A stretch of 64,000 nt of DNA, taken from an uncultured Verrucomicrobiae bacterium (GTDB taxonomy: Bacteria; Verrucomicrobiota; Verrucomicrobiia; Chthoniobacterales; Chthoniobacteraceae). The notes beneath the pieces were generated by a model. That model saw only the letters and a list, made by a program, of their open reading frames with translations. It made no database searches and had not been told where the DNA came from. Position numbers and translations under genes: made by a program. Shown here one piece after another: positions 1 through 18,770 of the stretch (its first letter is position 1; the number at the start of each line of letters is the position of its first letter). Where the stretch lies: the NCBI GenBank assembly GCA_963769025.1, contig CAVYKI010000009.1, forward strand, positions 1,120,001 through 1,184,000, given 5' to 3'.

Positions 1-3000
1 GGGGACGAAGTCCATCTTCTCGAATGCACCGGGCAGCGTGGCCATCTGGTTTGCGGCCTGGCCGATCTCGTCCTCGGAGCCTGGCTGCACGATCATCAAG
101 TTGTGCGGCGTGGCGTCGGGGTTTTCCAGGATGAGCTTCACCGGCGAGCCGGCCTTCACTTTGAACTCCGTGATCGTGAACATCATCCTTTCGTGGAGTG
201 TGGACATCTGCACGATCTGCGGCTTGAGCTTGTCGAACGGATCGCGCGCGCCCGTGCTGCTCGGCTTGCGCTTCTGCGGCGTGCTGTCGGCAAGGAATTT
301 CACGAGCTGCGGCTCGGCAGAAAATTTCGCGTCCTTCTCCCAGTGCGGCTTCAGCGAATCGAGCGCGCTGCGCAGGGCGAACGTGAGATACGTGTCCATC
401 GGGTGCTTCAGCAAATCGAGCGCGACGCCCGCGGCCTCCCGGCTCTGGAAATAGCTCGCGGCAATCGCCGCCTCCAGTCGCACGAGCCCGTTCCCGTCAT
501 TCGCGCATTCGCGCAGGAGGTCGAGCGCACGCGGTTCGGTCGAGGTGCAGATGAGCGATTCCTTTCCGTCCTCCCCCGTCACTTTGATCAAGTCGTGCCC
601 CTGCCCCGCGAGCAGCGGATGCGCCCAGCGCAGTTCGCGCGTCGCCGCGGCGCGGGCCTGGGGATCCTTCGCGTGCAGCAGCTTCATGAGCAGATCCACA
701 TTCGTGAAGCCCAGCCCGCGATACATCCACAACGCCTCGGTTTCGTGATGCAGCACACGCGCATCGCCCGCATCGAGCTTCGGCCACCACGCATCGAGCG
801 CCTTGCGCACTTCGTCGCGCGGACGCTCGCGCAGTTCCATCTTCGCGAGGTAGCGCGTGCGCGGCTCGGGGACTTTCAAAAGTTCCAGCAGCGCGGGAAC
901 CTGCTCGCCCGCGATCTTCGGCGCATCGAGCAGCGGCTGTCCCTTCGCGGTGATTCGCCAGATGCGGCCGCTCGTCTTGTCGCGGCGCGTGTCGCGCAGC
1001 GAATACTGCGCGTGGCCCTTCACCGGATTGTACCAGTCGCACACATACATGTCGCCGCGCGGGCCGCAGCGCACGTCGGTCGGGATGAACGACAGGTTCG
1101 TGCTCTCCCACACGTGGCCCTCCAGCTTCTCCTCGAAGTGCGTGTCCTTTTCCTCCCAGCGCATGATTTCCACGCTGTTCGTCGGCTTGTAGCGCACGCG
1201 CGCGAAGCACCCCTGCAGCTCCGCGGGAAAATGCCGGCCCGTGAAAAACTCCTGCCCGCAGGTGCCGCTGTAGGCCGGGAAGAAATTCCCCGCCGGCACG
1301 TGCTGCTGCGGGAATGGCGGGTTCAGCGCATGCACCGCGCTCGCGAAGACCGGATGACTCCCGACGTGCCAGCCCCAGTCATCGAACACGATGCCCCACG
1401 GATTCGTGCTGTAGTAGCTGCCGAATGCGAGCAGCCGCTGCGTCGCCGGGCGGAAGCGGAAGAACGTGCTGTCCTGCGCGCGCACCGGGCCGTAGGGCGT
1501 CTCGACCGACGAGTGATGAAAGATGCTCTCGCGGAAAATGAGGTCGCCGTCCGGGCTCCACGCAAAGTCGTGCAGCGCGTGATGCGAATCCTCCGTGCCG
1601 AAACCCGTCATCACGATCTGCTTCAGGTCCGCCTTTCCGTCGCCGTCCGTGTCCTTGAGAAAAACGAGGCTCGGCTGCTCCGACACATACACGCCGCCGT
1701 CGCCAAACTCGAAGGACAGCGGGATCGTCAGCCCCGTCGCGAACGTCGAGCACTTGTCCGCCTTCCCGTCGCCATCCGTGTCTTCGAGGATGATCGAGCT
1801 TGTCGCCCGGCGCGTCGCCCGGCGTCACCTGCGGATAGGTCTGCGAGCACGACACCCACAGCCGCCCGCGCGTGTCGAAGCGCATCTGGATCGGCTTCGC
1901 CAGTTCGGGAAAATCTTCCTCCGACGCAAAGCAGTTCACCTCAAAGCGCGGATCGATCCGGAACGCCTTCAGCTCGTCCGCAGGCGTGAGCCATTCGTTG
2001 ATGGGCCGGTCGCCCGTGATCGCCGGGAGCGGCGTCGTGTTCGAGTCGTCCACCTTCACGCCCCTTCCCTTCGGCGAGCGCCCACGCCGCGCGGTCGCGG
2101 TTCTCCGTCATCTCCTCCAGCTTCTTCAGCTCGCCGGGGAAATTGACCACGCCATACGGCTGCGCGCGCCCGCCGGTGATGTAGAAGCCATTCAGCGGAC
2201 GGTAATGCAGCAGCCACTGCCGGTTCTTGTCCTCCACCGTTTCCTTCAACTGCGCCGACACGTCCTTCGGCGTCTCGCTGAACAGCCCGCGGAACAGCAT
2301 CTCGCCAAACTGCCGGTAGCCCGCGTCCGTGAGATGGATGCCATTAAAAGTGAGCGCCTCCTTTTTCTCCGCCGCATTTTTCCGCGCCTCCATCGCCGCG
2401 AGAGACGGCGTGAACACATCCACAAACCCCACGCGCTCCCGCTTCGCCACGCGCTCCATCGCCTCCGTGTAGAGGCGCAGCCGCGCGTTGCTCTCGCGCC
2501 CGTCCGGCAGATTCGGATTGCCGAGATTCTCATGCGCGATCGGCGAGATGAGCACGATGGCCGGTGCCGACTTCCCATTGTAGCGATGCGCCCGCAGCCC
2601 CGCGACGAACGCCACCAGATCCGCCTCAAACTTCGCCACGCCCGCCGCACCGGCAAACGACTCATTGAACCCATACCCCGCGAGCACCACGTCCGCCTTC
2701 ACCTCCGCGAGCTGCGCGTGCATGTCCGCATATTTCTCCGGACGCGGCTGCACCGTGATCTCATCCCCCGGCCAGGCGAGCGTCCGCACCACCGGCTGCT
2801 GCGCCGCAAACCGCGCAAACAGCATCCCCTCAAACCACCCATGCGCCTGCATCCGCTCCATGAGCGTCCCCCCGAGAATCGCAATGCGCGCCCCCTTCTC
2901 GATGGAAAGCGGGAGCATCGTTGGAATCACCTCAGCAGCCTTCGCCGATTGCGCGGCACCCGCCGCATTCTGCGCACACACGGGCCACGAACACGCGACG

Positions 3001-3047
3001 GAAAGAACGGCAACGGCGGCGGGGAAAAGAAGGCGAGGGGAATTCAT
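1..3047 (-). CDS. Large secreted PVC-type multidomain protein (SGNH/GDSL-like domain + membrane-bound dehydrogenase-type beta-propeller + HEAT-like repeats + cupredoxin/azurin-like domain); runs off the left edge; frameshifts near 2065 and 1795
   Basis: ORF 1941..3092 has a signal peptide and GYGFNES / NGIHL motifs. It continues in ORF 1379..2059 (FASEEDFPELAKPIQMRFDTRGRLWV) and then in a third frame (LEDTDGDGKADK, GFGTEDSHH, NPWG). The left edge reads ENPDATPHNLMIVQPG, which is cupredoxin-like. Confidence 0.8.
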
Positions 3048-3176
3048 GGGAGTGCTCGGAACACCCTCACCGCCGCGACGACGGACACTCAAGGATTTTC
3101 AAATCAACTTGGTGCATTTCACAAATTCCCCGACCGGCTTACGCCCTAACAGCGAAATTGGGGTTTCGCGGCCGAC

Positions 3177-4889
3177 TCAAATCGTCAGCGCCCAAATCGA
3201 TTTGGCAACTTTCGCCATCTCGCCTTGCCGTTTTGCAATCGTCTCTTCCGTCCAGTCGCTGTATTGAGGCAGTTCCTTCGAAGTTCGATATTGGGATTGT
3301 GCATACACATGCTGTTTTTGTGCAAATGCGGCGTTGCCAGCTTGCTGCCCATTCAATCCTCGCTCCAACAATGAGTAGTTGCCGACGCGCTCGTAGCTGC
3401 GCTCATGTGCCTCGGGAGTAAACTGCTCCCACCCGACCTCACCCGGATTCTCCGGCAGGATATGCTCAACCGTGGCGGTCATCCCTTCGTCGGTGATGTC
3501 GGCACCGCTGAGTTGCTTTTCAATCTTAGCGAGAAGGTAGCGCAACCGCTTGCCAGAAGTGCTGCGGTTCCTCAGTCGAAGCGCTGAGAAATCCGCCTCG
3601 AACTCATCATCGGGAACGTAGATGGGCCGTAGAGCCTGCCGCACCGCAGCAAGTGTTGTAGCAGTGCCACGACGGACTTCCAAGGCTGCGCGGTTGTAAA
3701 TTTCTTCCAGAATGTGAGTGCTGCGTCGGCCGACGCCGTTGAATCTCACCGACAACACCGCGCAATAACGAAGAATCTCCACCAAGTCTTGCGGAGCGAT
3801 GAACACATCCTTCGCAGCAAGGACTAGCGGTGTGAACTGGGATACATTGAAAAGGTTGAGCACGCGCACCTGTTCGCGTGCGCCTTGGTAATCCAGCCAG
3901 AACTGGCTGGAAAAGTCGCTGAGTGCTTCGAACCACGCGGCATCCTTCTCTAATCGATCGAGCAGAGCAAATACGTGGTCCAGTGTCGTCACATCCCGCT
4001 TGATCGTTTTGAAGAGCTGCTTCTGTCGCACGTATTCACGATGAGAGTTCAGGTGGTGACGCAGGAAATCGGGAAAGCTGGCGATGCCCACACGAGCGGT
4101 GATGCGCGCCCACTGCCGGAGCACCGGGTCCATCTGCGACTTGCTGAGACGATCCGCCAGCGACAGCAGGTAGTTTTTCAACAGATCAGTTTCTGTCAGT
4201 TCCAAACCACGCGCGTTCAGAGTTTCAAAGACGGTGTAGGCGCTCAACTGATCCTGCACTCGCACGCTGATGAATACCAATCGCTCGGTAACAATCTCGC
4301 TGACGAAGCCCGCTACCTCCTCGCCCTTCTTCTTGCGCGAAAACTTTTCCTGAACCTTGCGTTTGAAGAACTGGAAACACTCCCAAAGAAGTCTCTCCGA
4401 ATCACGCAAACCTCGAACTCCACCCTGCGGCGGCTTGCGCTGGGCGAGGTTCAACTGAAAGAAGTCGTCGTCGTTGTTGTTGAGCTTGAGTTTTGGCGTG
4501 ATCCTCAGACTAGCCTCGTCTTTCGAGCCGACGTATCGCCCCTCCAAGAGTTCGGCTCGCTCGCGGTTTTCGGCTGGCTCGACGCCTTCTTTCGCAAGCT
4601 CATAGAGATAATCCGCGCAGGCGAGGATCAGGATGCTAAGCGTCGCCATTCGCTGCTGCCCGTAAATAATCCGGAACTGCTTCCGCTCGCCACTTTCCAG
4701 CACCAGCGCGCCCATGTAGTGATCCTCGCGGTTGGCCTCGATAGTCATCAAGTCTTCCCAGAGGTCCTCCCAATGCTCGTCCTTCCACGAGTAGTCACGT
4801 TGATACGGGGGAACACTGTAGCTCTTCCCGTTGCTGAGAAGCTCCTTCAGGTCTTCCGTATCGGTGTTGAGTAGAGTGCTGCGTGCCAT
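3177..4889 (-). CDS. GmrSD-family restriction-like protein (DUF262 + DUF1524/HNH)
   Basis: Motifs VPPYQRDYSW, YGQQR (for canonical DGQQR), FETLNARG, and C-terminal TVEHILPEN...GNYSLL...N. Composition is visibly less GC-rich than the flanks. Confidence 0.9.
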   Translation of the reverse strand: MARSTLLNTDTEDLKELLSNGKSYSVPPYQRDYSWKDEHWEDLWEDLMTIEANREDHYMGALVLESGERKQFRIIYGQQRMATLSILILACADYLYELAKEGVEPAENRERAELLEGRYVGSKDEASLRITPKLKLNNNDDDFFQLNLAQRKPPQGGVRGLRDSERLLWECFQFFKRKVQEKFSRKKKGEEVAGFVSEIVTERLVFISVRVQDQLSAYTVFETLNARGLELTETDLLKNYLLSLADRLSKSQMDPVLRQWARITARVGIASFPDFLRHHLNSHREYVRQKQLFKTIKRDVTTLDHVFALLDRLEKDAAWFEALSDFSSQFWLDYQGAREQVRVLNLFNVSQFTPLVLAAKDVFIAPQDLVEILRYCAVLSVRFNGVGRRSTHILEEIYNRAALEVRRGTATTLAAVRQALRPIYVPDDEFEADFSALRLRNRSTSGKRLRYLLAKIEKQLSGADITDEGMTATVEHILPENPGEVGWEQFTPEAHERSYERVGNYSLLERGLNGQQAGNAAFAQKQHVYAQSQYRTSKELPQYSDWTEETIAKRQGEMAKVAKSIWALTI

Positions 4890-4941
4890 AATTGACGGTG
4901 AGTTTACACAGTCGATCAGGAATGAACAGTCTCCGCCATAC

Positions 4942-5112
4942 TCAGTTTTCCGCGCAGGAGAACCACGCCCGCAGCCCGTCCTTCTTCAGCCGCTCCGCCA
5001 CGTCGCGCATGACCGCGTTGCCGCCAGTGTCGTGCATCAAAGTGGGCGGCTTACTTCGTTTGTCCTTTTCGCTGTGGCTCGGGAAGACGTCGTAGGGGAA
5101 TTCACCGGGCAT
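4942..5112 (-). pseudogene. Truncated TIR-domain N-terminal fragment, copy 1 (56 aa)
   Basis: My translation: MPGEFPYDVFPSHSEKDK[RSKPPTLMHDTGGN]AVMRDVAERLKKDGLRAWFSCAEN*. This resembles the TIR_2 start YDVFLSH...DK..V...AERL...GL.VWFD. Confidence 0.75.
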
Positions 5113-5178
5113 GGCTGTGGGGAATGGGATTCAGACGCTGGTTCCAACCTGCGGACGCGAGGTGCATAGCAGGGCGGG
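4960..5178. repeat. ~220-bp direct repeat, copy 1 (TIR start plus upstream leader)
   Basis: Aligns by eye with 6232..6451 at roughly 90% identity. Confidence 0.92.
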
Positions 5179-5273
5179 CACCGGGACGGCAAGCAGTTGG
5201 GCGGGTTTTTGAAGGATGCAAATTTTCCAAAGGTGACGGTGATCTTTCCGGGGGCGCGGGTTTCTCGCTCACA

Positions 5274-5564
5274 TCAGCCGCTGAACGGGCGTCTGGCAGC
5301 ATGACGGATGTGGCCGATGAGCACGGCGGTGGAGTGGATTTGAAAGAAGACAATGTAATTGCCGAAGGGCATCATCCTCCACGTTCTGGCGTACGGATAT
5401 GCCGCGAAGCGTTCAGGGAAAGTCTCCAAAGAGGCGCAGGCGGCGAGCAGTTGGCTGACGAAACGATCGGCCACCGCACGGTCGCGAGCCTCATCAACGA
5501 GCCGGGTGTGAATCCCGTCCAAGTCCCGGAGCGTGCGCCGGGCATGGACAACCTCGCGCTTCAC
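5274..5564 (-). CDS. RelE/ParE-family toxin
   Basis: 96 aa: ALRDL-like start (TLRDLDGI), L.TFPER, R....GNYIVFF, IRHAARR. Start overlaps the upstream antitoxin stop (GTGA). Confidence 0.85.
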   Translation of the reverse strand: MKREVVHARRTLRDLDGIHTRLVDEARDRAVADRFVSQLLAACASLETFPERFAAYPYARTWRMMPFGNYIVFFQIHSTAVLIGHIRHAARRPFSG

Positions 5565-5773
5565 GGCAGACCGAAATGCCGCCGCACGTCACCTTCCCGC
5601 AAGACATCTCCCCGGGCGAACTCCGCTTCGGCTTCAGAAAGCGCCTCGCGAATCACCGAGGTCTCTTCGCTGGAAAAACGCGACGCGAGCATTTCGGCAA
5701 TGCCGGTCTGGATCTTCATCCATTCCTCGCTGGGCATCGCGGCAATGGTGGCGAGAAGTTCCTGAGCGTTCAT
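5561..5773 (-). CDS. Putative antitoxin of the ParE/RelE toxin
   Basis: 70-aa acidic protein ending EAEAEFARGDV....VRRHFGL, translationally coupled to the toxin. Confidence 0.75.
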   Translation of the reverse strand: MNAQELLATIAAMPSEEWMKIQTGIAEMLASRFSSEETSVIREALSEAEAEFARGDVLREGDVRRHFGLP

Positions 5774-5831
5774 GTCGCCCGCACGCTGCCACGGCGAGGC
5801 ATCGCCCTCAAGTGAGAACCCCGCACATTTT

Positions 5832-5915
5832 TCATTTCGAGGTTCCATGGGGAGTGACGGGGCCGGATGGAGCCGGGTTGCAACACGATTGGTCGCTGAA
5901 GAAGCGCAGGCTCAC
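5832..5915 (-). pseudogene. Remnant of a DUF5615 (PIN-like) toxin partner of DUF433
   Basis: GTG overlaps the DUF433 stop (GTGA). It reads MSLRFFSDQ, a DUF5615-like start, then diverges and stops after 27 aa. Confidence 0.6.
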
Positions 5916-6133
5916 GCAGGCACGGCTTCAAATTCCGACAAGTCGCGGGCGTAATCCAGGCACGCCGCAACATCGGCCGGAGTGATGTCGGGAAATTCCC
6001 GCTGGATGGCTGCCGCATCGCGTCCTGCCGCCAGATAGCCCAGGATGAGCGCCACGGGAATGCGGGTGCCCTTGATGCACGGCTTGCCGCGGAGGATTTG
6101 CGAATCGCTAAGGATGTGTTCGCGCCAGTTCAT
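5912..6133 (-). CDS. DUF433 domain protein (VapB45-like antitoxin)
   Basis: ILRGKPCIKGTRIPV...EFPDIT..DVAACLDYA. Confidence 0.92.
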   Translation of the reverse strand: MNWREHILSDSQILRGKPCIKGTRIPVALILGYLAAGRDAAAIQREFPDITPADVAACLDYARDLSEFEAVPA

Positions 6134-6141
6134 AAGGTGAA

Positions 6142-6384
6142 TTATGTCACACGCTTGGCGGAAGGCGAGAGCTTCGCAGTCTTCGACTGGGTTCTTTCGA
6201 TGCTGCCGCCGGGCCGGATCTCCCATTCATCGAACCACCCCCGCAGCCCGTCCTTCCTCAGCCGCTCCGCCACGCCGCGCACGACCGGGTTGCCGCCAGT
6301 GTCGTGCATCAAAGTGGGCGGCATACTTCGTTTGTCCCTTGCGTTGTGGCTCGGGAAAGCATCGCAAGGGAATTCACCGGGCAT
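6142..6384 (-). pseudogene. Truncated TIR-domain N-terminal fragment, copy 2 (80 aa)
   Basis: MPGEFPCDAFPSHNARDK[RSMPPTLMHDTGGN]PVVRGVAERLRKDGLRGWFDEWEIRPGGSI, followed by unrelated sequence. Confidence 0.8.
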
Positions 6385-6451
6385 CGCTCTGGGGAGTGGG
6401 ATTCCAACGCTGGTTCCGACCTGCGGACGCGAGGTGGCATGGCAGGGCGGG
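6232..6451. repeat. ~220-bp direct repeat, copy 2
   Basis: Aligns with 4960..5178; offset 1272 bp. Confidence 0.92.
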
Positions 6452-6604
6452 AGGGAGGGAAAAGGATGAAGTTTCAAGGATGAGCCGGAAACTTTGGCTT
6501 CCGCGACGGGCAACCTTTTAGTCGAACGCGGTCGCAGACCGGATTTTCCATCGTTTGATGCGGTTTTTGCTTCAAAAAAGGCTCTTTTTCAAGGTTGCGA
6601 GGTG

Positions 6605-7087
6605 ATTCTCCGACGCAAGAAAACCATTCTCCGACGCAAGAAAACCATTCTCCGACGCAAGAAAACCATTCTCCGACGCAAGAAAACCATTCTCCGACGC
6701 AAGAAAACCATTCTCCGACGCAAGAAAACCATTCTCCGACGCAAGAAAACCATTCTCCGACGCAAGAAAACCATTCTCCGACGCAAGAGAACCATTCTCC
6801 GACGCAAGAGAACCATTCTCCGACGCAAGAGAACCATTCTCCGACGCAAGAGAACCATTCTCCGACGCAAGAGAACCATTCTCCGACGCAAGAGAACCAT
6901 TCTCCGACGCAAGAGAACCATTCTCCGACGCAAGAGAACCATTCTCCGACGCAAGAGAACCATTCTCCGACGCAAGAAAACCATTCTCCGACGCAAGAGA
7001 ACCGCTCCCCGACGCAAGTGAACCGTTCTCCGACGCAAGAGAACCATTCTCCGACGCAAGAGAACGATCCTCCGCCGGAAGAGAAGC
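6605..7087. repeat. Tandem array of the 21-bp unit ATTCTCCGACGCAAGA(A/G)AACC, ~22 copies plus one degenerate copy
   Basis: Directly visible. 8 A-variant units, then 9 G-variant units, then mixed and degenerate units at the right end. No spacers. Confidence 0.98.
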
Positions 7088-7171
7088 GAAGGCGTCCAGC
7101 ATCATCTCCAGAAGGGCAGGCGGTCCGGTTTCCCCTTCCATCATGCAGTCCGCGCGCTAGCGTGCGCGGCT

Positions 7172-7882
7172 GTGCCAGTCTTCTCCGGCATTTTCCGCAA
7201 TCTAGTCTTCAAGCCGATCTTGCGGCCGGTTTTTCGCGTGCTCACCGGGGTGCTGGCCATCCCGGTGTTTCGGTTTGTGATGCGGCGTTTCTTTCACCGG
7301 AAAAAGCTCACGAAGGAAATGGAGCGGGACCTGGAGATGTGGTTCCGGGGCGCGGTGATCCTGCTCGCGGCGACGGCGAATCTGGAGGATTTTCTCTTCG
7401 GCTGGCTGCCCTGGCACAAGAGCGAGGAGCCGTGGCTGACCATGCTGCTGCGCCTGCTGCTGGCCGTCGGGGTCATCGAGCACATGCCCGACCAGGAGGT
7501 GTTTGGCATCCTGCATCGCGGGCCGCCACAGGTGAAGCTGACCAGCCGCAGCGGGTGGAAGGAAGCCTGGCGGCGGCGGCGGGAATTCCTGCGCGGCCTC
7601 GTGGTCCTCCACCTGAAGCGCTCCTCGCCGGTGTTTGTCATCATGACGGTGATCTTCGGAAACCAGCCGGGCACGCGCGAGTTCATCGTCGGATGGATCT
7701 TCTACGGCCTCGCGGTCGCGCAGTACTTGATCATCGGGCTGGTGACCGAGGGCGACCGGCTCCGGGGCTTGCTGGCGGAGTTCGACCGCAGTGCGGAGGC
7801 GCTCCGGAAGGAGATCGCGGCGAAGGAACCTGCTTCCGCAACCCCGGCGAATGACGGGACGACACCGATCTCGCCCCCGTAG
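7172..7882 (+). CDS. Hypothetical membrane protein
   Basis: 236-aa ORF with several hydrophobic segments; TAGCGT -10-like box 8 nt before the GTG. Confidence 0.8.
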   Translation: MPVFSGIFRNLVFKPILRPVFRVLTGVLAIPVFRFVMRRFFHRKKLTKEMERDLEMWFRGAVILLAATANLEDFLFGWLPWHKSEEPWLTMLLRLLLAVGVIEHMPDQEVFGILHRGPPQVKLTSRSGWKEAWRRRREFLRGLVVLHLKRSSPVFVIMTVIFGNQPGTREFIVGWIFYGLAVAQYLIIGLVTEGDRLRGLLAEFDRSAEALRKEIAAKEPASATPANDGTTPISPP

Positions 7883-7983
7883 CGACGACCGCCAGACTGT
7901 GAATGGGCTGCCCCGCTACACGCCGCCAGCCGAGGGCGGGTAATCGGCATTTGCCTCGCGACGGGGAAGTCGCGCGCGGCTTC

Positions 7984-9753
7984 TCAGGCGCATTGAGTCG
8001 TCGGAATGGCGAAGGCGCTGCCTTGCGATAGGATCGCTTTGTGAAGGACGGTCAGGAGCGTGCCCGTGCTGAAGGGCTTGTTGAGCATCTCGCTCACTTT
8101 GAGTGACTGCAATTCCTCGGCGCGCGCTTCATCCGCATACCCGGTCGAAGCAATCACGGAGACCGCCGGATTCATGCGCTTCAAAAGACGGCAGAGGGTC
8201 ACGCCATCCACCAGTGGCATCATGATGTCGGTGAGGACGACGCGGATTTCTGCGCCGTGCTGGGCATAGATGGATACCGCCTCGGTGCCATCCGCCGCCG
8301 CCATGGTGCTGTAGCCGTATCGGGTGAGCACGGATTCGGTCGTGGTGCGGATGTCGTATTCGTCGTCCACCACGAGGATCAGTTCGCCATGTCCGACCGG
8401 GAACGGCGTTTCGACGTCCTCAAGCATCGGACAGGCGCCTCCGGACGCGACCGGCAGCCAGAATTCGAAGGTGGTGCCCCGGCCCTGTTCGCTCCGCAAG
8501 TTCAGCACGCCGTCGTGGCTTTTCACGATGCCGCTGGCAGTGGAGAGGCCGAGGCCGGTGCCCTTGCCCAGCGGTTTGGTCGTAAAAAATGGATCGAAGA
8601 TTTTGGCGATGATCTCGCGGGGGATGCCCATGCCGCTGTCGGCGACCCTGAATACGACGTACCGTCCGGGTTGAACCCCCGGCGTCATGCACGCAGATGC
8701 CGCGTCGAACTCAACATTGTCGGCGCTGAGGCGCAGCGTGCCGCCGTCGGGCATGGCGTCGCGGGCGTTCACGCAGAGATTCATGAGCACTTGATGGAGT
8801 TGCGTGGCGTCGCCGTTCACGCAGAACAGGTTCTTGGCAATGTCGCACTGGATGCGAACGTTTCGCGGGAAGGTACCCGAGATGACGTTGACGATTTCGT
8901 GGAGCAGATGGCTGGGCTCGAGACGCGAACGCGCGCCCTCCGCACCGCGGGCAAAGGTGAGCACCTGCTTGACCAACACGGCGGCACGCTGCGCGGAATT
9001 TTCGATCATCGCGACCAGTCCCCTCGATTCCTCGGCGATGTCCACATTCAGCAATCCCGCGGACATGAGGATCGGCGAGAGCATGTTGTTCAAGTCATGC
9101 GCGATACCGCTGGCGAGGGTGCCAATGCTCTCGAGACGCTGGGCGCGCAGAAGGTGGTCCTCGGCCTGCTTGCGCTGTTCCATCTCGGCGAGGAGCCGCT
9201 TGTTCATTTCGCGGAGATCGCGGGTGCGCTCCTCGACGACCCGCTCCGTTTCCGCAAGGCGATCGCGGGCCTCGTGGGTCAGCCTCCATTTTTCGCAGAG
9301 CGCGCAGGCGAGTTGCAGCGCCTCGATGGCCGCGAATGGCTTTTTGAGCACCAGCAACCGGTCGCGGTTACCGAGGCGGTCCACCATTTCCTGCCACGAA
9401 TAGTCCGAGTAGGCGGTGCACATGACCACCTGCAGCTCCGGGCAAAGCTGCCAGAGGCGCTCCGCAGTCTCGATGCCATCCGCGCCGGGAGGCATCCGCA
9501 CGTCCACAAACGCCATCGCAAACGGACGCCCCTCCTCGATCGCCAGGCGAAGCGCGACCACGCCTTCATCCCCCTGATAGGCCGAGGTGAGTTCGAAAGT
9601 CGGCTGCCCCGGGGATGGCACGGGCTTGCCGAAGAACTCCGCCTCCGCCTGGTCGCTCGCGTCATTTACGGGGCAGAGGATCTTGCGAAAATCCTCATGG
9701 ATCGCGCGGTTGTCATCGATGACGAGGATGCGGTGGTTGGAGTGCGTGCTCAT
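7984..9753 (-). CDS. Hybrid sensor kinase/response regulator (REC-HisKA-HATPase-REC)
   Basis: ILVIDD...DVRMPPG; IAHDLNN; NLCVNARDAM, DSGMGI, FDPFFTTK, GTGLGL; ILVVDDE...DIMMP...KPF. Confidence 0.95.
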   Translation of the reverse strand: MSTHSNHRILVIDDNRAIHEDFRKILCPVNDASDQAEAEFFGKPVPSPGQPTFELTSAYQGDEGVVALRLAIEEGRPFAMAFVDVRMPPGADGIETAERLWQLCPELQVVMCTAYSDYSWQEMVDRLGNRDRLLVLKKPFAAIEALQLACALCEKWRLTHEARDRLAETERVVEERTRDLREMNKRLLAEMEQRKQAEDHLLRAQRLESIGTLASGIAHDLNNMLSPILMSAGLLNVDIAEESRGLVAMIENSAQRAAVLVKQVLTFARGAEGARSRLEPSHLLHEIVNVISGTFPRNVRIQCDIAKNLFCVNGDATQLHQVLMNLCVNARDAMPDGGTLRLSADNVEFDAASACMTPGVQPGRYVVFRVADSGMGIPREIIAKIFDPFFTTKPLGKGTGLGLSTASGIVKSHDGVLNLRSEQGRGTTFEFWLPVASGGACPMLEDVETPFPVGHGELILVVDDEYDIRTTTESVLTRYGYSTMAAADGTEAVSIYAQHGAEIRVVLTDIMMPLVDGVTLCRLLKRMNPAVSVIASTGYADEARAEELQSLKVSEMLNKPFSTGTLLTVLHKAILSQGSAFAIPTTQCA

Positions 9754-11750
9754 GAATTTTCGGGGGTCAAGGGGATCTCGATGGTGAAAGTGGCGCCCGT
9801 GCCGGGCCCGTCGCTGTGTGCGCGGAGCGAGCCGCCCATCTCGGACGCGGCCAGCGCGCTGCTGTGGAGCCCGAATCCGTGCCCCTGCTTTCGCGTGGTG
9901 AATCCGTGTTCGAAGATGCGGGTGAGGTTTTCCGGAGCGATGCCGATGCCATTGTCGCTCACCGAGACTTTTGCGAACTTCCCGCCATTCAGCTGCGCAC
10001 GCACCGTGACCTGCTTGTGCGTACCGCCGCCCTCGTCACATGCATACTTTGCGTTGCGGACGAGGTTCATCAAAATGAGCAGGAGCTTGTTGCGATCGAA
10101 AGGGATGGGGGGAATCGCGGGATCAAATTCGCGCACGAGATGCGTGCCGTGGCGGAGGAAGGCGTTCGCATTCATCCGCAGCGCGTCCTCGATCACTCCG
10201 TCCAGGGGCAGCGTCTCCACGACGCCGCCCGAGCCCGCGAAGCTCTGCTGCATGGCCACGATCTCGTTGATGTGCTCGATGTTCGCACGCAGCGAGGCGA
10301 GTTCGCGGAGTACCGTCTGCCGTTCCGCGATGAAGTGCTCGGCGAGCTGGGTGAGGAATTTCGGCAGTTTGGAACCCTGCGGGTGCTCCGCAAAAAACGC
10401 CGGAAGCTCCTCCGTATGCTCGTTCACCAGCTCCGCGACGCGGCCCAGTCCCGCGGCCTTCAGGCGGGAGACCTTGTCGGTGGCGATGCCGATGGACGTG
10501 TAGACGCTGTTGAGGACGTTGCCCACATTGTGCAACACGCTGGAGGCCACCTCGGCCATTCCAGCCTGCCTCGAGGTGTCGAGCAACTGCCTGTGGATTC
10601 GACGCAGCTCACTTTCGGCATGCTTTCGCTCGGTGATGTCGTGAAGAAACGCACTGAAAAGCACCGTGGTCCCGAGACGGATCGGGGAGATGGCCAGTTC
10701 GACGGGCAGCTCATGCCCGTCCTGATGCAGGACACCGATCTCGGTGCGCTGGTTCAGCGCCGCGCCGTCCCCAGAGGCAAAGAAGTGATCGAGCCGCTGG
10801 CGGTGGGCTTCGCGGTGGCTCGGCGCGACGAGCATCTCGGAGAAGTTGCGCCCCAGCGCTTCCGCCTGCGTCCAGCCGCAGGTCAGCTCGGCCTGCCGGT
10901 TCCAAGCGGTGATCGCACCGGTCGCGTCGGTCGTGATGATGGCATCCGATGCAGTGTCCACGATGAGTCGGATGCGCTCTTCACTGGCACGCAGGGCCGC
11001 GGTGCGTTCCTCGACCCGCTTTTCCAAGGTGACCTGTGCTGCCTGGCGCTCGGCGTCCCGCGCCTCCACCTGCGCCAGTAATGCGCGGGTGGCGGCGAGC
11101 GAAAGGCCGAGGCAAAGGAGCGTGAACCCCGTGAGCACCACCGTCGCGAGGAGCCCGAAATGATCGGACTGCGCGAGGAGCACGGTGGTGCGCACGCCGG
11201 CTGCGTTGGAGAGCTGAAAGTATTGCTCGTTGAGGGCGCCAAGCTGCGTCTCGATCTTGTCCTGCGCCGGTCCGACCTGCTGGTCGAGCGTGGCCATCGC
11301 CTTTTCAAACTCACCCACGGCGAGCTCGGTCTGGAACTTTTCCGCGCTCTTGCGATAGCGTTCCTCATCCTCGGCAAATGCGGCAAGGAAGCGTTGCGTG
11401 GGCTCATCCTTGGCGAGCAGCTTCAGGAGGGAAATGCTGCGGTTCACCTGCACCGTGGCTTCCTGGAATGCCTGCTTTTGCTGCTTCATGGCCTCCTCGT
11501 CCCTCGCGAGCGCAAACTGGTAGGTAATGCTCTTCAACGTAAGCGCGGCGTCCTGCAACCGGGCAAGGGTGACCAGGCCCGGCAGGAACTGACGGGTGAG
11601 GGTCTCCGTCTGCTGGGTGCCCTGCCGGGAGTATTTCCGGGAGATGATGGTGACGACGGTGACGCCGAGCGCGATCAGCGCGAAGCATCCGGCTGTGAGC
11701 AGCATCGCCTGACGGAACCCGAAATTGCGGGTGAAACGGGTGAGGTTCAT
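9750..11750 (-). CDS. Membrane sensor histidine kinase (two TM helices, periplasmic four-helix-bundle-like sensor, PAS, HisKA, HATPase)
   Basis: WNRQAELTCGW (PAS); VLHNVGNVL; NLVRNA, DNGIGI, FEHGFTT, GHGFGL. Confidence 0.93.
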   Translation of the reverse strand: MNLTRFTRNFGFRQAMLLTAGCFALIALGVTVVTIISRKYSRQGTQQTETLTRQFLPGLVTLARLQDAALTLKSITYQFALARDEEAMKQQKQAFQEATVQVNRSISLLKLLAKDEPTQRFLAAFAEDEERYRKSAEKFQTELAVGEFEKAMATLDQQVGPAQDKIETQLGALNEQYFQLSNAAGVRTTVLLAQSDHFGLLATVVLTGFTLLCLGLSLAATRALLAQVEARDAERQAAQVTLEKRVEERTAALRASEERIRLIVDTASDAIITTDATGAITAWNRQAELTCGWTQAEALGRNFSEMLVAPSHREAHRQRLDHFFASGDGAALNQRTEIGVLHQDGHELPVELAISPIRLGTTVLFSAFLHDITERKHAESELRRIHRQLLDTSRQAGMAEVASSVLHNVGNVLNSVYTSIGIATDKVSRLKAAGLGRVAELVNEHTEELPAFFAEHPQGSKLPKFLTQLAEHFIAERQTVLRELASLRANIEHINEIVAMQQSFAGSGGVVETLPLDGVIEDALRMNANAFLRHGTHLVREFDPAIPPIPFDRNKLLLILMNLVRNAKYACDEGGGTHKQVTVRAQLNGGKFAKVSVSDNGIGIAPENLTRIFEHGFTTRKQGHGFGLHSSALAASEMGGSLRAHSDGPGTGATFTIEIPLTPENS

Positions 11751-11757
11751 CGGTGGC

Positions 11758-12177
11758 CTACTGCGGGGCTAAAACAGTGAGGCCGGCGGTCCGCCCGGAG
11801 TCGGTGATCACAATGGCGCCGGGCGTTTCAGTGGCGATTCGCTTCGCCTCCGCCTCGGTGTCGACAATCTTGGGCGCGCTGCCTCCGCCGGTCATGAACA
11901 GGCGACGCCAGTGGTTTTGAAACTGGCTGGTCGTCATGCCAAGATGGAACTGGAGAAAGGCGTTCTGGGCCTCGCTGTTCCTCGCCATGACGATGACGAC
12001 GCGCACGCCGCCGAGCGTGATCCTTTTGCCGAGAAGGACGGCCTTGATGCCCTCGGCATCGAGCGACTGGCCCGCAAGTTCGGCGTGACCGAGAAGTGCG
12101 GGCGCAGCGCGGAGATTCACCGACGAGCCGAAGAGGCTCGCAGCAAGAATCAGTGAGCGCAGAAGTTTGATAAGCAC
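11758..12177 (-). CDS. Small exported protein resembling a single periplasmic-binding-protein lobe
   Basis: Signal peptide; WRRLFMTGGGSAP...E.E......TPGAI motif recalled from small proteins often annotated as phosphate-binding-like. Confidence 0.7.
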   Translation of the reverse strand: MLIKLLRSLILAASLFGSSVNLRAAPALLGHAELAGQSLDAEGIKAVLLGKRITLGGVRVVIVMARNSEAQNAFLQFHLGMTTSQFQNHWRRLFMTGGGSAPKIVDTEAEAKRIATETPGAIVITDSGRTAGLTVLAPQ

Positions 12178-12207
12178 GGGAGTTAAGGCAGTGGTTTCCG
12201 GTGCGGG

Positions 12208-13617
12208 TCAGAACGAGAAGGTGAGCTTCGCGGCGAAGAGGAACCACGAATTGTCACGGCCAGAGACGGGCTGCGGGTTCTCGACGGTGTCGAAGACCTT
12301 GCCGGCATTAAGCATATAATGCCCTTCAAGCTTGAAGACGAGGTGCTCGTTGATGTCGAATCGCGCGCTGACGGCAAAGTCGTTCTGTTTGAGGACCGGC
12401 AGGCTTAGGTTGCCGTACGGACTGTTCACCAACGGCTCCGTATCCCGGGAGTGACTGTAATAAACGCCCAGCTCCAGCCACGAGTTGATCCTGCGAGCGA
12501 CCGACAGGTAGTAATAGTCGCTGTTGAAATCCATGTCCAAATAGTGTGCACCGGCCAGATCGGTGTTGTAGAAGGCCGAGTCCCGTCCCGCCTCGGCGGC
12601 GAATACCCAATTGCCCTTCGTATACTCGACCGAAAACAGATGCCGTTGATAGGAGTCCGTGGACTTCGTGCCTACGACGTTCACAAAAGGCTGATCCAGT
12701 CCGTTCAGTGGCAAATCCGCCCGGCGCACGGAACTCAGATTCTGGAACGAGCTGTACGAGTATCCGAGGCGAAGTCCTGCGAGCGGGGTGTTCCAAAATA
12801 CGGAACCCCCAGCCACGGAATCCATCTTCATGCCCAAGCCCACGGACGGATAATCGTTATTGAAGTAGTCGCTGGCTCCCGATTCCGTGCCGATGGGAAT
12901 ATCGCCAAAGAAAGCCCGGTAATCGATGCTCCCGGCTTCCTTCAAACTGACATTGCCGAAGATCATGCCGCCGTTGAAGGAGGCGTTGAAATCCCGCAGG
13001 CGCGCGTCATAGACGCTCTGCGGCAAGAGGACGAAAGGACGGACGGAATCGAGGTCGAGTGCCTCGTTGTAAAGCCCGCGCGGCATTTTCACACGGCCGG
13101 CACGCACGCCAAACCACTGCGCAGGCTGATAATCCACCGTCGCCCAATCGATATCCAGCTTGTCATTGCCGTAATCGCCGAGCTTTTGGCCGAAGGCCTG
13201 AATGCCCAATCGCCATTTTCCTATGGCATAGGACGCATTGACGCCGTACTCGCGGAAATCAAAAGTTCCCGCGCTGGTATCGCCAAGGTACTTGTTGTGC
13301 CCGGTATTGGCGATGAAGCCCTGGCTGACAAACCCGCCGAACTGCACGGAGGTCATGGATCCCTTCATCAGTTGCTGGATGGAATCAGAAAGGCTGGACG
13401 AACGGTCGGCACCCATCGCCGGAGTGCCAAGGAGACCGATGGCACAGGCCAAAGCACAGCCTTTTGCGCCCGAGAGAAGCTGCCGCCGCACTGCAGGTAT
13501 CCGCGGAGCCGCCGACTCGGAAAGCGGGAGGATTGAATCACTCTCCGGGGGGTGGAACTGAGAATTCCGGATAGCGGCTTCCCCGGATATCCATGATGGC
13601 GTGGCGTTTATTTCCAT
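12208..13617 (-). CDS. Outer-membrane beta-barrel / porin-like protein (start uncertain)
   Basis: FGGFVSQGF, DWATVDY, RAGRVKMPRGLYNE; alternating aromatic strands; C-terminal Phe (KLTFSF). Confidence 0.85.
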   Translation of the reverse strand: MEINATPSWISGEAAIRNSQFHPPESDSILPLSESAAPRIPAVRRQLLSGAKGCALACAIGLLGTPAMGADRSSSLSDSIQQLMKGSMTSVQFGGFVSQGFIANTGHNKYLGDTSAGTFDFREYGVNASYAIGKWRLGIQAFGQKLGDYGNDKLDIDWATVDYQPAQWFGVRAGRVKMPRGLYNEALDLDSVRPFVLLPQSVYDARLRDFNASFNGGMIFGNVSLKEAGSIDYRAFFGDIPIGTESGASDYFNNDYPSVGLGMKMDSVAGGSVFWNTPLAGLRLGYSYSSFQNLSSVRRADLPLNGLDQPFVNVVGTKSTDSYQRHLFSVEYTKGNWVFAAEAGRDSAFYNTDLAGAHYLDMDFNSDYYYLSVARRINSWLELGVYYSHSRDTEPLVNSPYGNLSLPVLKQNDFAVSARFDINEHLVFKLEGHYMLNAGKVFDTVENPQPVSGRDNSWFLFAAKLTFSF

Positions 13618-13635
13618 TTTAGGACAACCAAACCT

Positions 13636-13652
13636 AGCCGACGCCATGCCAA
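13636..13652 (-). promoter_or_regulatory. Possible sigma54 (-24/-12) promoter
   Basis: Minus strand TTGGCATGGCGTCGGCT has GG-N10-GC spacing upstream of the porin gene; the -12 box is non-consensus. Confidence 0.4.
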
Positions 13653-13826
13653 CACCCTCCGTAAACTCAATTCTTTTATCACCTCGTTCCCATTCAAATG
13701 TCGCGGATAAAGCCTGTCCGCAGGGTCGACGCACCACGCGTCATTTCCGGCATCGCGCCGTCCTGATGCAGCACTCCATTCACAATCTCATACCCCCGCG
13801 GCACCCGCTTTCCGGCCCGCCGCGGC

Positions 13827-15259
13827 CTAGGCCGACGACTCGAGAACTCTCAGGTCGGCACGCTTGTTTTCGTAGCTCTCGTTAAACGCGGCGACCCTGG
13901 GCTCCGGCTTCACCCCCCAGTTTTCGCACGCGGCGGAATAGACGTCCGGCCACCAGTTGCGGTGCTGCGTGAGGCCCTCGTCGCGCCATTGCGCGCCAGC
14001 CGATGAGGACCTTGCTCCAGCAGCGGTCGCCCTACTCGATGGCCTCCTTCGCGTTGTCGAACTGGCTGACGTACCAGTCGCGGCCGACGCGCGCGTGCAG
14101 CACTTCGTCGGCCCAGTCGTAAGTCCTGGAACGTGCGCGGAGAGCGGTTGCTGCGACGCGACGCGCGATCTCCCACTCGAAGCGCTTGCCGGTCTTCGGC
14201 ATCAGCCCCTGCTCGATGAAGTAGAGCACGGCGTGCCGCTCCTTCGGCGCGAGTTGGGTGTTGAGCCCGAGCGACCAGGTGAAGTTGACCATCACCTTCG
14301 TCCAGTCGACGCCCAGCGTCGACGAAGCCGACCTCGCCCATCATCGCGTGGCGCGCCTCGTCCCAGAGCTGGCGCGTCATGTCGCGGTAGTAGCCCCACG
14401 GCTTGCCCGGCGTCTCGGTGATGATGCTGGCCATCATCTCCGGCACGTCGATTTCGCGGAGGCGCTTGTAGAACATCATCAGCGTCTTCGGCTGCGCGCG
14501 GCATCTCCGGGTCGTAGAGGAACGCCTCGGCGTTCACGCCCATGTTGTAGGGATCGGGGAAACGCTCGTCGCGCTGCGGCACGCGGTCGTAGGTGTACGG
14601 CTTCGCCGAAAAGTGACGGGGTGCGCGTGCGGGCGAGACTTCCGCGGAGCCGTCGAGCGTTCCCGCGGCCGCGAGCGCGCAATCGAGCAGCGCAAGCCAC
14701 TCCGCGAAGCGCGTGCGCTCGGCGGCGGCGACGAGCTGCGCGACGGCCTTCGTGCCGTAGCCGGCATGTCACCGAGTTCGAGCAGCGCGAACCGCAGCAC
14801 GCGACGGCTCGGCGCATCGGCGAGCGGATTCGCCGCCGCGCTGTAGCGTTCCATCGCCTGCACGAGCTCGGGGACCACTTTCTCGTACAGCCCGAGCAGG
14901 AGCGCGGCCGTGTCCGGCGCGGCGAGGATTTCGTCGAAGAAGATCTCGAGGTTCGCATCCGGCACGACCTCCAGCCCGAGCGGCGGCTCGCGCATCTCGC
15001 CGACGCGCGCACGCAGCGCCGTGGCGTGCTCGGCGCAGTAGTGGCCATGCAGCGAGAAGGCCATCTTCAGCTCATAGATCGGCTCGGCGGTGAGCCGTGC
15101 GATGAAGATCTCGTGCAGCCGGCGGAAGGCGTAGTGGAAGCGCTTCAGCCGCCGCACGCATTCGTCCACGGAGAGGCCGGGCGTCCGCGCTTCGTCGAAC
15201 GAAGCGAGGCCGGCGAGGGGCGGGAGGCTCTGGTACGGGGTGTAGTTCTCGATGGCCAT
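13827..15259 (-). CDS. Ferritin-like (DUF455-like) protein, broken by several frameshifts
   Basis: Fragments in successive frames: MAIENY...CAEHATAL; RDERFPDPYN; LWDEARHAMMG; WADEVLHAR; ...LRVLESSA*. Repeated ExxH motifs. Confidence 0.65.
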
Positions 15260-15322
15260 GCAGGGAGAATAACCTGCGGGCGGCGCGATTCCAGACTTCG
15301 CGTGAGCCCGGCGACCCCGCAA

Positions 15323-16318
15323 CTACTCCGGTTTCGGATCGCGGCCGAGCAGGCGCGCCATCGCGTCGGCGGGCGAGACGGCACCGTCGAGGATTGCCTT
15401 CACCTGATCGATGATCGGAGTTTCGACCCCGAGCTTCCGCGCGCATTCGAATGCGCTGTAAGTCGTCGGCACGCCTTCCGCGACCATCTGCATCGACGAC
15501 ACGATGTCCGCGAGACGCTCGCCTTTTCCGAGGCGCTCGCCGACCGCGCGGTTGCGGCTGTGCCGGCTGAAGCACGTGACCATCAAATCCCCCACCCCGC
15601 TGAGGCCCATGAAGGTCTCGCGCCTGCCGCCGAGCGCGGTGCCGAGGCGGCCGAGTTCCACAAGCGCACGCGTCACGAGCGCGGACTTCGCATTGTCGCC
15701 GAGGCCGAGTCCGTCGCCTGCGCCCGCAGCGAGCGCGTAGATGTTTTTCAGCGCGCCGCCAAACTCAACGCCCGCGACATCCTCGCTCGTGTAGGCCCGG
15801 AAAAACGGGGCGGTGAATGCGCGCTGCAGCTTTTGCGCGATGCCGGAATCGCTGCAGCCGAGCACCACGCAGGTCGGCATCTTGCGCGCGACTTCCTCCG
15901 CGTGGCTCGGCCCGCTCAGTGCGGCGAGCGGATGATCCGGAAAATGTTCGGCGATGACTTCGCTCATCCGCAGCCCGCTCCCGCGCTCCACGCCTTTCGT
16001 GCAGCTCAGGAGCACGGCGCCGGCCCGCACGCCGCTCGCCGAAAGCCGCGCGGCCACCTCGCGGACCGCCTTCGATGGCGTGACGACGAGCAGGAGATCG
16101 CACTCTGCGAGATCGCCGAGTTCCGGGGTGAGGCGGAGCGATTCGGGAATGGCCACGCCCGGCAGGCAGATGGCGTTCTCGCGCCGCGTCGCGATTTCAC
16201 CGACGTGCCTGGGATCGTGGCCCCACATGGTGACCGGCACTCCGTTGCCGAGCAGCACGAGCGAGAGCGCAGTGCCCCAACTCCCGGCCCCGATGACTCC
16301 GACATTTTGAAAACTCAC
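15323..16318 (-). CDS. gpsA: NAD(P)H-dependent glycerol-3-phosphate dehydrogenase
   Basis: GAGSWGTAL, LSGPSHAEEV, GGALKNI, GDLMVTC.SRHSRN. Confidence 0.97.
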   Translation of the reverse strand: MSFQNVGVIGAGSWGTALSLVLLGNGVPVTMWGHDPRHVGEIATRRENAICLPGVAIPESLRLTPELGDLAECDLLLVVTPSKAVREVAARLSASGVRAGAVLLSCTKGVERGSGLRMSEVIAEHFPDHPLAALSGPSHAEEVARKMPTCVVLGCSDSGIAQKLQRAFTAPFFRAYTSEDVAGVEFGGALKNIYALAAGAGDGLGLGDNAKSALVTRALVELGRLGTALGGRRETFMGLSGVGDLMVTCFSRHSRNRAVGERLGKGERLADIVSSMQMVAEGVPTTYSAFECARKLGVETPIIDQVKAILDGAVSPADAMARLLGRDPKPE

Positions 16319-16938: not shown

Positions 16939-16996
16939 GTGCCGGATGGGATGTTTTCGCGAGGCGCGGTGTCAAGCACGCGGCAAGACGAACGCG

Positions 16997-17674: not shown

Positions 17675-17677
17675 GGG

Positions 17678-18667: not shown

Positions 18668-18770
18668 GATGCGACGACGATGCCGGGTTCTGACGAAAAA
18701 GGAAGGGCGGGCGAGCTTTCAACTGGGGGAATGCTCGCCCGCCCTCATAGGAGGAATCTGTTTCTCCGCG

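Follow-up and report, generated by a model that had tools for sequence, protein, structure and literature searches.

Truncated TIR gene starts beside exchangeable, often defensive cargo at a locus of an uncultured Verrucomicrobiae bacterium

Introduction

Why should two broken fronts of a defence gene lie close together, each directly ahead of other defence genes? This question is raised by part of a 64,000-nucleotide stretch (the window) from an uncultured freshwater Verrucomicrobiae bacterium. Read along the minus strand from position 7085 to 3177, an array of 21-nt repeats is followed by the start of a gene for a TIR-domain protein (copy 2), a DUF433 gene with the remnant of a DUF5615 gene, an antitoxin/ParE pair, a second TIR gene start (copy 1) and a GmrSD gene, and all genes between 3177 and 6384 are co-oriented on that strand. 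A first-pass annotation had described this order, which proved correct in every testable point, and had proposed in addition that the TIR-start unit is a reusable, integron-like recombination platform that collects defence cassettes. The comparisons presented below point elsewhere. In the explanation that fits best, and which is judged probable though well short of certain, the TIR starts would be scars of repeated replacement within TIR genes, each surviving stub acting as a homology arm and probable promoter, with no dedicated recombinase or recombination site.

The window corresponds to C9:1120001-1184000 of G000, the present assembly, which is a 13-contig metagenome-assembled genome (MAG) that is 83% complete. 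G-numbers denote the genomes of relatives in the genus and L-numbers metagenome contigs, L055 being the same as G012:C120. Feature coordinates are collected in Table 1.

Structure and kinship of the two TIR gene starts

The two starts form a repeat that was detected as two copies of 205 nt (4960-5164 and 6232-6436) with 90% identity, and that blastn extends to 220 nt at 90.0% (4960-5178 against 6232-6451). Each unit consists of ~66 nt of upstream sequence, here termed U1, and the first ~50 codons of a TIR gene, with the ATG at 5112 and 6384. U1 is presumed to be a promoter or 5' untranslated region. A scan of the sequence collection with a 21-nt U1 pattern returned nine loci, of which three are contigs of the genus (G015:C36, G025:C117 and G012:C116) and the remaining six, in unrelated phyla, are taken as chance matches. 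Neither window copy holds a complete TIR domain (TIR_2, 122 positions). The 80-aa open reading frame (ORF) of copy 2 matches TIR_2 over profile positions 10-43 at 23.9 bits against a cut-off of 28; the 56-aa ORF of copy 1 has no Pfam match, and its TIR identity is visible only by DNA alignment to intact relatives. Elsewhere in G000 the search found the unit only as a partial match at C9:1245783-1245935, which is the start of an 849-aa ORF with a TIR domain at 102 bits. By eye, the TIR domain of this paralogue is followed by WD40-like repeats and a P-loop GTPase-like part, and then by an apparent loss of frame. Within C9:1243012-1245925 the frame seems to be lost after ~640 codons, and a 338-aa ORF continues in another frame; the long paralogue may also be broken, or it may hold a sequencing error.

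Two small in-frame inserts help to trace the descent of the copies. Element A, 42 nt long and encoding RSKPPTLMHDTGGN, is present in both window copies and absent from the G000 paralogue. Insert B is palindromic with the core CAGTCGAAGACTG, adds a net 18 nt, is read as 'ERTQSKT' and changes 'SIPAKI' to 'SIERTQSKTAKI'; it is found in copy 2, G026:C283, G012:C89 and L090. A and B occur in all four combinations among TIR copies. Of the two, only copy 1 is preceded by a further upstream block, U2a, and only copy 2 by an array; insert B is likewise confined to copy 2. Copy 2 in this respect resembles array-linked TIR genes with insert B, the uncut form of which, with U1, A and B, is L090.

A simple local duplication of one TIR gene start, followed by decay, would account for the direct orientation of the copies, 1272 nt apart, and for a change of FLSH to FPSH that both copies have. 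This change is the sole identical one that they have in common, and it is found in none of the 12 related copies from which a consensus was drawn. Against that consensus, however, private changes number 8 in copy 1 and 14 in copy 2, such that the 10% divergence between them is the sum of private changes from a family consensus held in other genomes, which argues for two independent decays and not for a recent duplication. Copy 1, moreover, is preceded by U2a, and other genomes hold an orthologue of it at 95% identity, copy 2 has the insert B and upstream array also seen in L090 and G012:C89, and the two copies break at different points. Duplication is therefore largely refuted, and hardly any weight is left to it. 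A tree of 20 copies is an unresolved star. The first-pass annotation had itself named, as the outcome that would speak for duplication, a pair of copies confined to this locus with fixed neighbours in relatives, and this is not what was found.

Replacement of the inside of TIR genes at other loci

Across the genus, and in lake metagenomes, the same TIR start stands ahead of many different genes. Relative G012 alone has four copies alike in their array (built of related 21-nt units), in ~330 nt of upstream sequence, in U1 and in the TIR start, and each goes on differently: behind one, cut after 'SH', the next gene encodes a UG19-class reverse transcriptase (PADLOC RT_UG19, 2e-167); a broken TIR on contig C89 is followed by an HNH protein (PADLOC, 1e-18) and has a ParDE block just upstream; a third is interrupted by a small repeat, followed by a 269-aa ORF and a Y1 transposase; and the fourth is broken after ~75 codons. 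In G025:C76 the TIR is cut after 'NKER' and an AAA_13 protein (PDC-S06, 2e-245) begins 28 nt on, in G014:C7 a broken TIR precedes a DUF4062-NACHT protein, and G016 has two further truncated copies. The first-pass annotation's expectation of many copies with differing cargo thus holds for the genus, with one relative carrying four; in G000 itself only two stubs and one paralogue exist.

At three loci (L050, L051 and L055) the far side of the cargo holds pieces that match the 3' region of the G000 paralogue locus at 85-88% identity. With 5' and 3' remnants of a long TIR-WD40-GTPase gene on either side, the cargo at these loci has replaced the inside of the gene. How general such loss has been is indicated by the 29 TIR starts tabulated, of which two (the G000 paralogue and L098) run past the full TIR domain; the rest comprise one fusion, one start that ends at a contig edge and others that stop within 29-151 codons. 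Junctions were taken from nucleotide alignments, the automatic estimate of where TIR homology ends having over-extended in chimeric ORFs.

The cargo is frequently of a defensive kind, with matches to PADLOC HEC-06, PDC-S06, RT_UG19, HNH and PDC-S29 and to the Pfam families ParE, DUF433 and AbiEii-like, and it also includes genes with no such link, namely those for HEAT and Asp-protease-like proteins and a PSD1 fragment. In 12 of 14 cargo classes the first downstream gene is on the same strand as the stub (the other two, L101 and G016:C212, give no information), and this co-orientation makes a role of the stub in expression plausible.

Two side observations concern small repeats at these loci. 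A short repeat translating '...LHPSAFILHPSSF' replaces the middle of one TIR copy (L055, ~8790-8880) and recurs in G000 at C9:1248130-1248440, as one more dispersed small repeat in the genus. In addition, a block of ~120 nt, up to 99% identical among three G012 loci (the L055 slice 6500-11500 at 3380-3510, C89 and C108) and found also in inverted form, lies close to a Y1 (IS200-like) transposase gene, at a distance of 1-1.5 kb downstream from TIR starts. This block is a candidate element of the repetitive extragenic palindrome or miniature inverted-repeat transposable element (MITE) type.

One slot with exchangeable cargo

The clearest evidence for exchange comes from the relatives of copy 1. 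In at least eight loci (L049, L083, L084, L092, L098, L101, L113 and L116), tgt, encoding queuine tRNA-ribosyltransferase, lies ~77 nt upstream of a U2a-U1-stub; of the eight, one is G025:C117 and seven are metagenome contigs. The tgt genes of the relatives are 93-95% identical to that of G000. Behind the cargo lies the 5' piece of a GDSL-lipase gene, ~500 nt long in L084, L092, L101, L113 and L116 and reduced to a 40-nt remnant in L049 and L098; it was not found in L083, whose contig stops earlier. This 5' piece stops at ~2606 in window coordinates, and beyond it lies a DnaJ gene.

Between tgt with its U2a-U1-stub and the lipase 5' piece, five cargo states are seen across the eight loci. GmrSD follows the stub in L092 and L116, which have the stub-GmrSD junction and spacer of the window and match window 2606-5247 at 95.4-95.5% identity. 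A stub fused in frame to a C-terminal DUF1553/PSD1 piece is found in L113 and G025:C117, followed by a HEAT protein and an AbiEii-like nucleotidyltransferase; the stub::PSD1 fusion ORF is found also in L083, L094, L103 and L119. An IS200-like Y1 transposase follows the stub in L084, with a junction common to L087, and L101 has no convincing ORF behind its stub. L098, finally, has a full 276-aa TIR (TIR_2 positions 10-122) with element A inside, then a 185-aa ORF, an EcsC-like protein (PADLOC PDC-S29, 3e-76) and an AbiEii-like nucleotidyltransferase as in L113. In the window's own spacer, the non-TIR tail of the stub ORF shows a weak similarity by which it may be a remnant of an older stub::PSD1 fusion.

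Cargo does not follow the tgt tree at this slot. Among the hotspot loci tgt differs at 18-54 of 1123 positions, and the pair at the lower bound, L116 with GmrSD and L049 with HEAT (18/1123), have near-identical tgt yet different cargo, which indicates fast turnover. Conversely, G000 tgt shows 66-77 differences from the hotspot contigs, yet the GmrSD unit is common to both. Other genomes of the genus add further arrangements ahead of the complete lipase-fusion gene: in G004 it is preceded by a 42-nt array, an ArsR-like ORF and a stub fused to a 558-aa HEAT protein, in G014 by an 11-codon stub, a 42-nt array and an ArsR-like ORF, and in G026 by a TIR start with insert B and then an Asp-protease-like protein. 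Relative to G004, which keeps the large-scale order gpsA, stub, lipase gene, the variable stretch is window 3104-15323, an island of ~12 kb.

The GmrSD gene of the window is itself intact. GmrSD_N (residues 14-242) and GmrSD_C (426-561) lie in one ORF that matches PADLOC HEC-06 over its full length (1.2e-197), consistent with a type IV restriction enzyme, for which cleavage of modified (glucosyl-hmC) DNA is the predicted activity. Its differences from two metagenome relatives, 0.016/0.007/0.093 at the three codon positions, show the pattern of purifying selection, and the cargo is thus live. The guanine-cytosine fraction is 0.54-0.57 in GmrSD against 0.63-0.68 in the flanks.

In G000 itself tgt lies on another contig, C6, beside an unrelated neighbour, whereas it adjoins the stub in all eight loci of the relatives. 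This difference raises the suspicion that the juxtaposed stubs are an assembly chimera joined through repeated TIR starts, the more so in a MAG of 13 contigs and 83% completeness, and given that several TIR-start variants occur in the same lake metagenomes, where contigs break at the edges of the unit. Such a chimera is nonetheless very unlikely. The sequence between the copies is unique, such that two false joins would be needed; the joint of ParE with U2a is not inside a repeat; U2a of G000 has ~11 private changes and is not simply a relative's contig spliced in; and G004 has the same large-scale order from gpsA through stub to lipase.

Junctions and the route of exchange

If the TIR start were a dedicated unit of ~220 nt that captures and expresses defence cassettes by specific recombination, as an integron does but without attC sites, a common point of joining might be expected. 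Several features seem to favour such a platform: the unit recurs with differing and often defensive cargo, the four G012 copies have a common array, upstream region and TIR start and each continues differently, in 12 of 14 classes stub and cargo point the same way, there is a cluster of junctions near 'GLRVWF', and module boundaries are tight, with linkers of 25-60 nt. The positions of the junctions, however, vary by cargo class, falling after codon 11, after codon 14, near 'GLRVWF', and after 'WFDKWEM', 'SKTAK', 'NKER' and 'RFLP'. They are specific to the class, and an identical junction recurs only with its own cargo, which points to one illegitimate event per class, the product of which was then passed on as a block. 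In no case was a stub seen to have spread by itself. The 5' and 3' remnants of a full-length gene around the cargo at three loci also speak against a platform, as do the presence of only two stubs in G000 and linkers that by eye have no common motif.

Nor is a recombinase at hand. The first-pass annotation saw none in the window, and the wider search agrees: tyrosine recombinase (PF00589) has three matches in the 83%-complete assembly, two on C3 and one on C12, with none on contig C9, and serine recombinase has no match in the assembly. The single Y1 (IS200-like) transposase that G000 holds is 570 kb from the locus. The integron-like idea fits the pattern but misses the mechanism, and, with cargo-specific junctions, both gene remnants at three loci, no spread of the stub alone and no recombinase nearby, a dedicated platform must be regarded as quite improbable.

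A trace of ordinary recombination is seen instead in the leader of copy 1. Between G000 and L116, U2a differs at 13 of 69 positions, U1 at 4 of 66 and the stub at 7 of 153, with 15 differences in 289 positions of U1, stub and spacer together. U2a is nearly invariant among the tgt-type contigs, and the ~11 private changes of G000 are found there. This shift in divergence can be read as a crossover near 5179, by which the block of stub, GmrSD and lipase 5' piece would have become common, recently, to G000 and the L116 lineage. This shift supports homologous recombination through the flanks, as do a cargo pattern that does not track the tgt tree and the combinations of inserts A and B, with the caveat for the last that repeated insertion of a mobile element could mimic recombination.

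Replacement followed by homologous exchange would thus proceed as follows. The two TIR starts would be 5' remnants of different members of one TIR defence gene family, in which the middle or 3' part of the gene has, repeatedly in this genus, been replaced illegitimately by foreign, often defence, genes. What would survive each replacement is the upstream region with the first 10-110 codons. Once formed, a junction of stub and cargo would be inherited, and passed between close relatives by ordinary homologous recombination, with the conserved stub and the next conserved gene, here the 5' part of the GDSL-lipase gene, serving as homology arms; the new gene probably also takes its promoter from the stub. 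Copy 1 with GmrSD would be such a unit, common with lake relatives, and copy 2 with DUF433 and ParDE a second, independent scar brought alongside by a rearrangement. No dedicated recombinase or recombination site would take part.

Several points weigh against this explanation. Three or four junction classes fall within ~20 nt of 'GLRVWFDEWE', more clustered than random breakage would give, and there may be a local junction hot spot; two of the classes may have one origin, however, and ascertainment via element A narrows the range. The stub and U1, like the spacer, differ by 5-7%, as compared to a nearby or slightly higher 9% at third codon positions of GmrSD and 13-16% at those of tgt, and although the counts are small, the lower divergence would indicate that some constraint, gene conversion or recent transfer is acting. 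Co-orientation, the 21/42-nt arrays upstream of U1 and the four dispersed G012 copies fit an organised system as well. The promoter scan returned a single promoter-like site, which lies within GmrSD on the plus strand, and no sigma-70-like match on the minus strand; terminator-like sites in the scan are at chance level. The ORFs of the relatives, furthermore, come from a custom script and not from a gene finder, and window 5248-7100 was found as a block in no other genome or metagenome contig compared.

These points leave some room, if little, for an organised alternative in which array, U1 and TIR start together form, at dispersed loci of Chthoniobacterales, a functional pad on which defence genes land and from which they are expressed, an integrase-free capture system. 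The unit would then be kept by selection and homogenised between loci and species, a capture hot spot would lie inside the TIR frame near 'GLRVWFDEWE', the TIR promoter would drive the cargo, and the array would act as a regulator, for example as a protein-binding iteron or as a repeat RNA restraining the TIR toxin. Taken as a whole, a pad of this kind is unlikely.

The DUF433 and ParDE segment

Between the two stubs lie modules that end abruptly, as the first-pass annotation had noted. DUF433 is intact, with homologues at 70-74% in five genus genomes, and its partner is not: the DUF5615 remnant, correctly seen as cut off, aligns for ~10 codons with the intact DUF433+DUF5615 pairs of G023 and G018 (DUF5615 at 9e-11 and 1e-11), and DNA homology to these pairs then stops at ~5883, with unrelated sequence beyond. 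The ParDE block (5273-5822, 550 nt) is 84% identical to that of G012:C89, with both genes conserved, and ends at the ParE stop. A ParE-fold toxin with a small upstream antitoxin gene in one operon is the arrangement of a type II ParDE system; the putative antitoxin has no Pfam or PADLOC match. The linkers between modules at 5247-5273, 5822-5883 and 6134-6169 measure 25-60 nt, and synteny of U2a with the tgt-linked relatives stops at ~5247-5255.

Table 1. Features of the locus, in window coordinates
Feature	Position	Strand	Evidence and remarks
GmrSD, 570 aa, DUF262+DUF1524, intact	3177..4889	-	GmrSD_N 1.1e-34, GmrSD_C 7e-27
Spacer, stub 1 to GmrSD	4890..4959	-	includes non-TIR tail of stub ORF, 'SCAEN' and stop
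TIR start copy 1	4960..5112	-	TIR codons 1-51, cut after 'GLRAWF'; element A at 5020-5061
U1 of copy 1	5113..5178	-	upstream sequence common to both copies and many relatives
U2a	5179..5247	-	copy 1 only; otherwise found solely in relatives' tgt-linked copies
ParE toxin, 96 aa	5274..5564	-	Pfam ParE_toxin 5.5e-12
Putative ParE antitoxin, 74 aa	5561..5785	-	ATG at 5785; stop overlaps ParE start by 4 nt
DUF5615 remnant, ~10 codons	5883..5915	-	PIN-like DUF433 partner; alignment to intact G023 and G018 pairs
DUF433, 73 aa, intact	5912..6133	-	Pfam 2.4e-21
TIR start copy 2	6169..6384	-	~72 TIR codons, cut after 'SKTAK'; element A at 6292-6333, insert B at 6178-6198
U1 of copy 2	6385..6451	-	alignments
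Array of 21 nt x 22.9 copies	6605..7085	.	96% matches; two unit variants in blocks

Direct repeats around a toxin-antitoxin segment invite a further explanation, a single crossover of the Campbell type, in which a circular DNA carrying a TIR start brought in DUF433-ParDE, an event reversible through the repeats. The order in G012:C89 (ParDE, array, U1-TIR with insert B) is indeed that of the window segment closed into a circle. The joint of ParE with U2a (~5250), however, lies outside the repeat, which starts at 5178, and the right-hand copy thus does not look like what a crossover within the repeat would leave; 220 nt at 90% identity also make a poor substrate, and no segment-free variant was seen, in runs that did not include the strain itself. 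Contigs of these four lake/freshwater DNA runs covered ~2615-5247 and short parts of copy 2, with zero cover at 5296-6200 and 6382-7800, and their one joint that goes back is a 151-nt contig of a relative's intact TIR, uninformative on excision. A Campbell-type origin is accordingly given a low probability, and an independent scar brought alongside by a rearrangement is preferred for this segment.

Tandem arrays and small inserts

The array lies ~220 nt upstream of the start codon of copy 2, with a 150-nt spacer between array and unit. Arrays of 21 or 42 nt lie 150-340 nt upstream of U1-TIR in six loci, including the four of G012 and L090. Ten further arrays in G000, of period 21 or 42 nt and 4-19 copies, lie beside unrelated genes (C10:336900-337400, C13:22037, C2:176310, C2:337807, C2:421895, C3:868806, C9:210326, C9:552487, C9:1222853 and C9:1246839). 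One unit recurs at three of these loci (C10, C13 and C9:210326); the 42-nt units at C9:552487 and C9:1246839 have a GGGGAGACTCCCC-like palindrome, with related cores in the arrays of relatives; and two G000 arrays lie inside homologous ORFs of 592-643 aa, beside collagen-like and phage-tail-like genes. An all-against-all comparison of the flanks of the 13 G000 arrays found nothing in common except one gene family (C9:552487 and C9:1246839), and the arrays are thus not parts of a single mobile element. The locus does not match a type III toxin-antitoxin system: an array does lie upstream of the gene, but that gene encodes a TIR protein in place of a ToxN/AbiQ-type endoRNase, the repeat unit measures 21 nt, and folds are weak, the scores of element A and the array units being z -0.9 to -3.1.

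Element A is also found outside the TIR genes. Its layout is AAACGRAGTAAGCCGCCCACTT, 7-10 variable nt and CACTGGCGGC, with a GC stem of 6-7 bp and a weak fold. Within ORFs it keeps the frame, in either orientation and at times as tandem doublets (L060, 2770-2855 and 3148-3191). Seven sites are found in G000, among them C12:195178, C3:838410, C6:322542, C6:428879 and C9:1246559, and 54 loci in the metagenomes, where few positions recur: 15 loci have it at the TIR start and L127 at a second TIR site, ~25 have it in opposite orientation in a gene resembling the one that follows the G000 TIR paralogue, and 4 have it in a membrane-protein gene. By these features it looks like a very small in-frame insertion element. 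In-frame miniature insertion elements are described as Rickettsia palindromic elements and Coxiella MITEs (PMC1779305, PMC5896051; review PMC10969869), which element A resembles in being short, in its GC stem and in lying in frame inside ORFs in either orientation. It is unlike them in its length of only 42 nt, its variable centre of 7-10 nt, low copy number and tandem doublets, and in being confined to few sites that recur, most of them in two genes of a single defence locus.

Surroundings of the locus

In G004 and G014 a single ORF of 1060-1079 aa makes up the GDSL-lipase/DUF7133/HEAT gene next to the island. In the window (1-3092, minus strand) the same gene is split into the overlapping ORFs 1941-3092, 1379-2059 and 1-1692, either by a frameshift or by an assembly error. 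The intergenic sequence between GmrSD and the lipase gene (3093-3176) differs from L116 and L092 at 1-2 of 84 positions and is the best-kept part of the neighbourhood; it is possibly the control region of the lipase gene. A scan of window 1-20000 for tRNA and tmRNA genes found none, and thus no attachment site of the tRNA type, and an Rfam scan of window 3000-7400 at E<=1 gave 0 matches.

Comparison with known systems

Should replacement and exchange operate as proposed, broken defence genes would be more than debris, in that they would keep a promoter and homology with which the next defence gene can be installed and shared. The TIR genes of this lineage would also be unusually prone to overwriting, as the two of 29 tabulated starts that pass the full TIR domain suggest. 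The phylum of this bacterium has few known mobile elements, and the locus offers a concrete case of defence cargo swapping in such an environmental phylum, as well as junctions that may reveal how replacement takes place.

Three kinds of known system bear comparison. Bacterial TIR proteins of the NLR-like type (STAND, WD40, Roc-type GTPase) are resembled by the G000 paralogue, with its TIR domain and, by eye, WD40-like and GTPase-like parts, and the DUF4062-NACHT protein behind the broken TIR of G014:C7 is a further point of likeness; the window holds only the first 51 and ~72 codons of TIR genes. Integron cassette arrays, including chromosomal integrons with defence cassettes, are well known, and the locus is like them in its single upstream unit, its co-oriented cargo without evident promoters of its own and its compact modules. 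It does not appear to be an integron, however: no IntI-type recombinase was found on the contig, no repeated site is recognisable by eye, the junctions are variable and lie inside coding sequence, and what might pass for a platform is the remnant of a gene.

The closest parallel is with defence-island hotspots. Chromosomal core defence hotspots are known, and the anchors of exchange in fast-turnover defence islands are usually core or phage genes. Defence hotspots with exchangeable cargo are likewise described for P2-like phages and P4-like satellites (PMC9122126). As in such hotspots, a fixed slot here holds different cargo in very close relatives, much of it known or candidate defence, and conserved flanks allow exchange by homologous recombination. 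Unlike hotspots anchored by phage or core genes, one flank here appears to be what is left of a dead defence gene, namely its TIR start and the sequence upstream, and, unlike in known hotspots, the same type of stub stands at several unrelated loci of one genome, four of them in G012. To judge from these sequence comparisons, the locus behaves as a defence-island hotspot, and what is new is that its conserved flank is apparently a dead TIR gene start, recurring at several loci.

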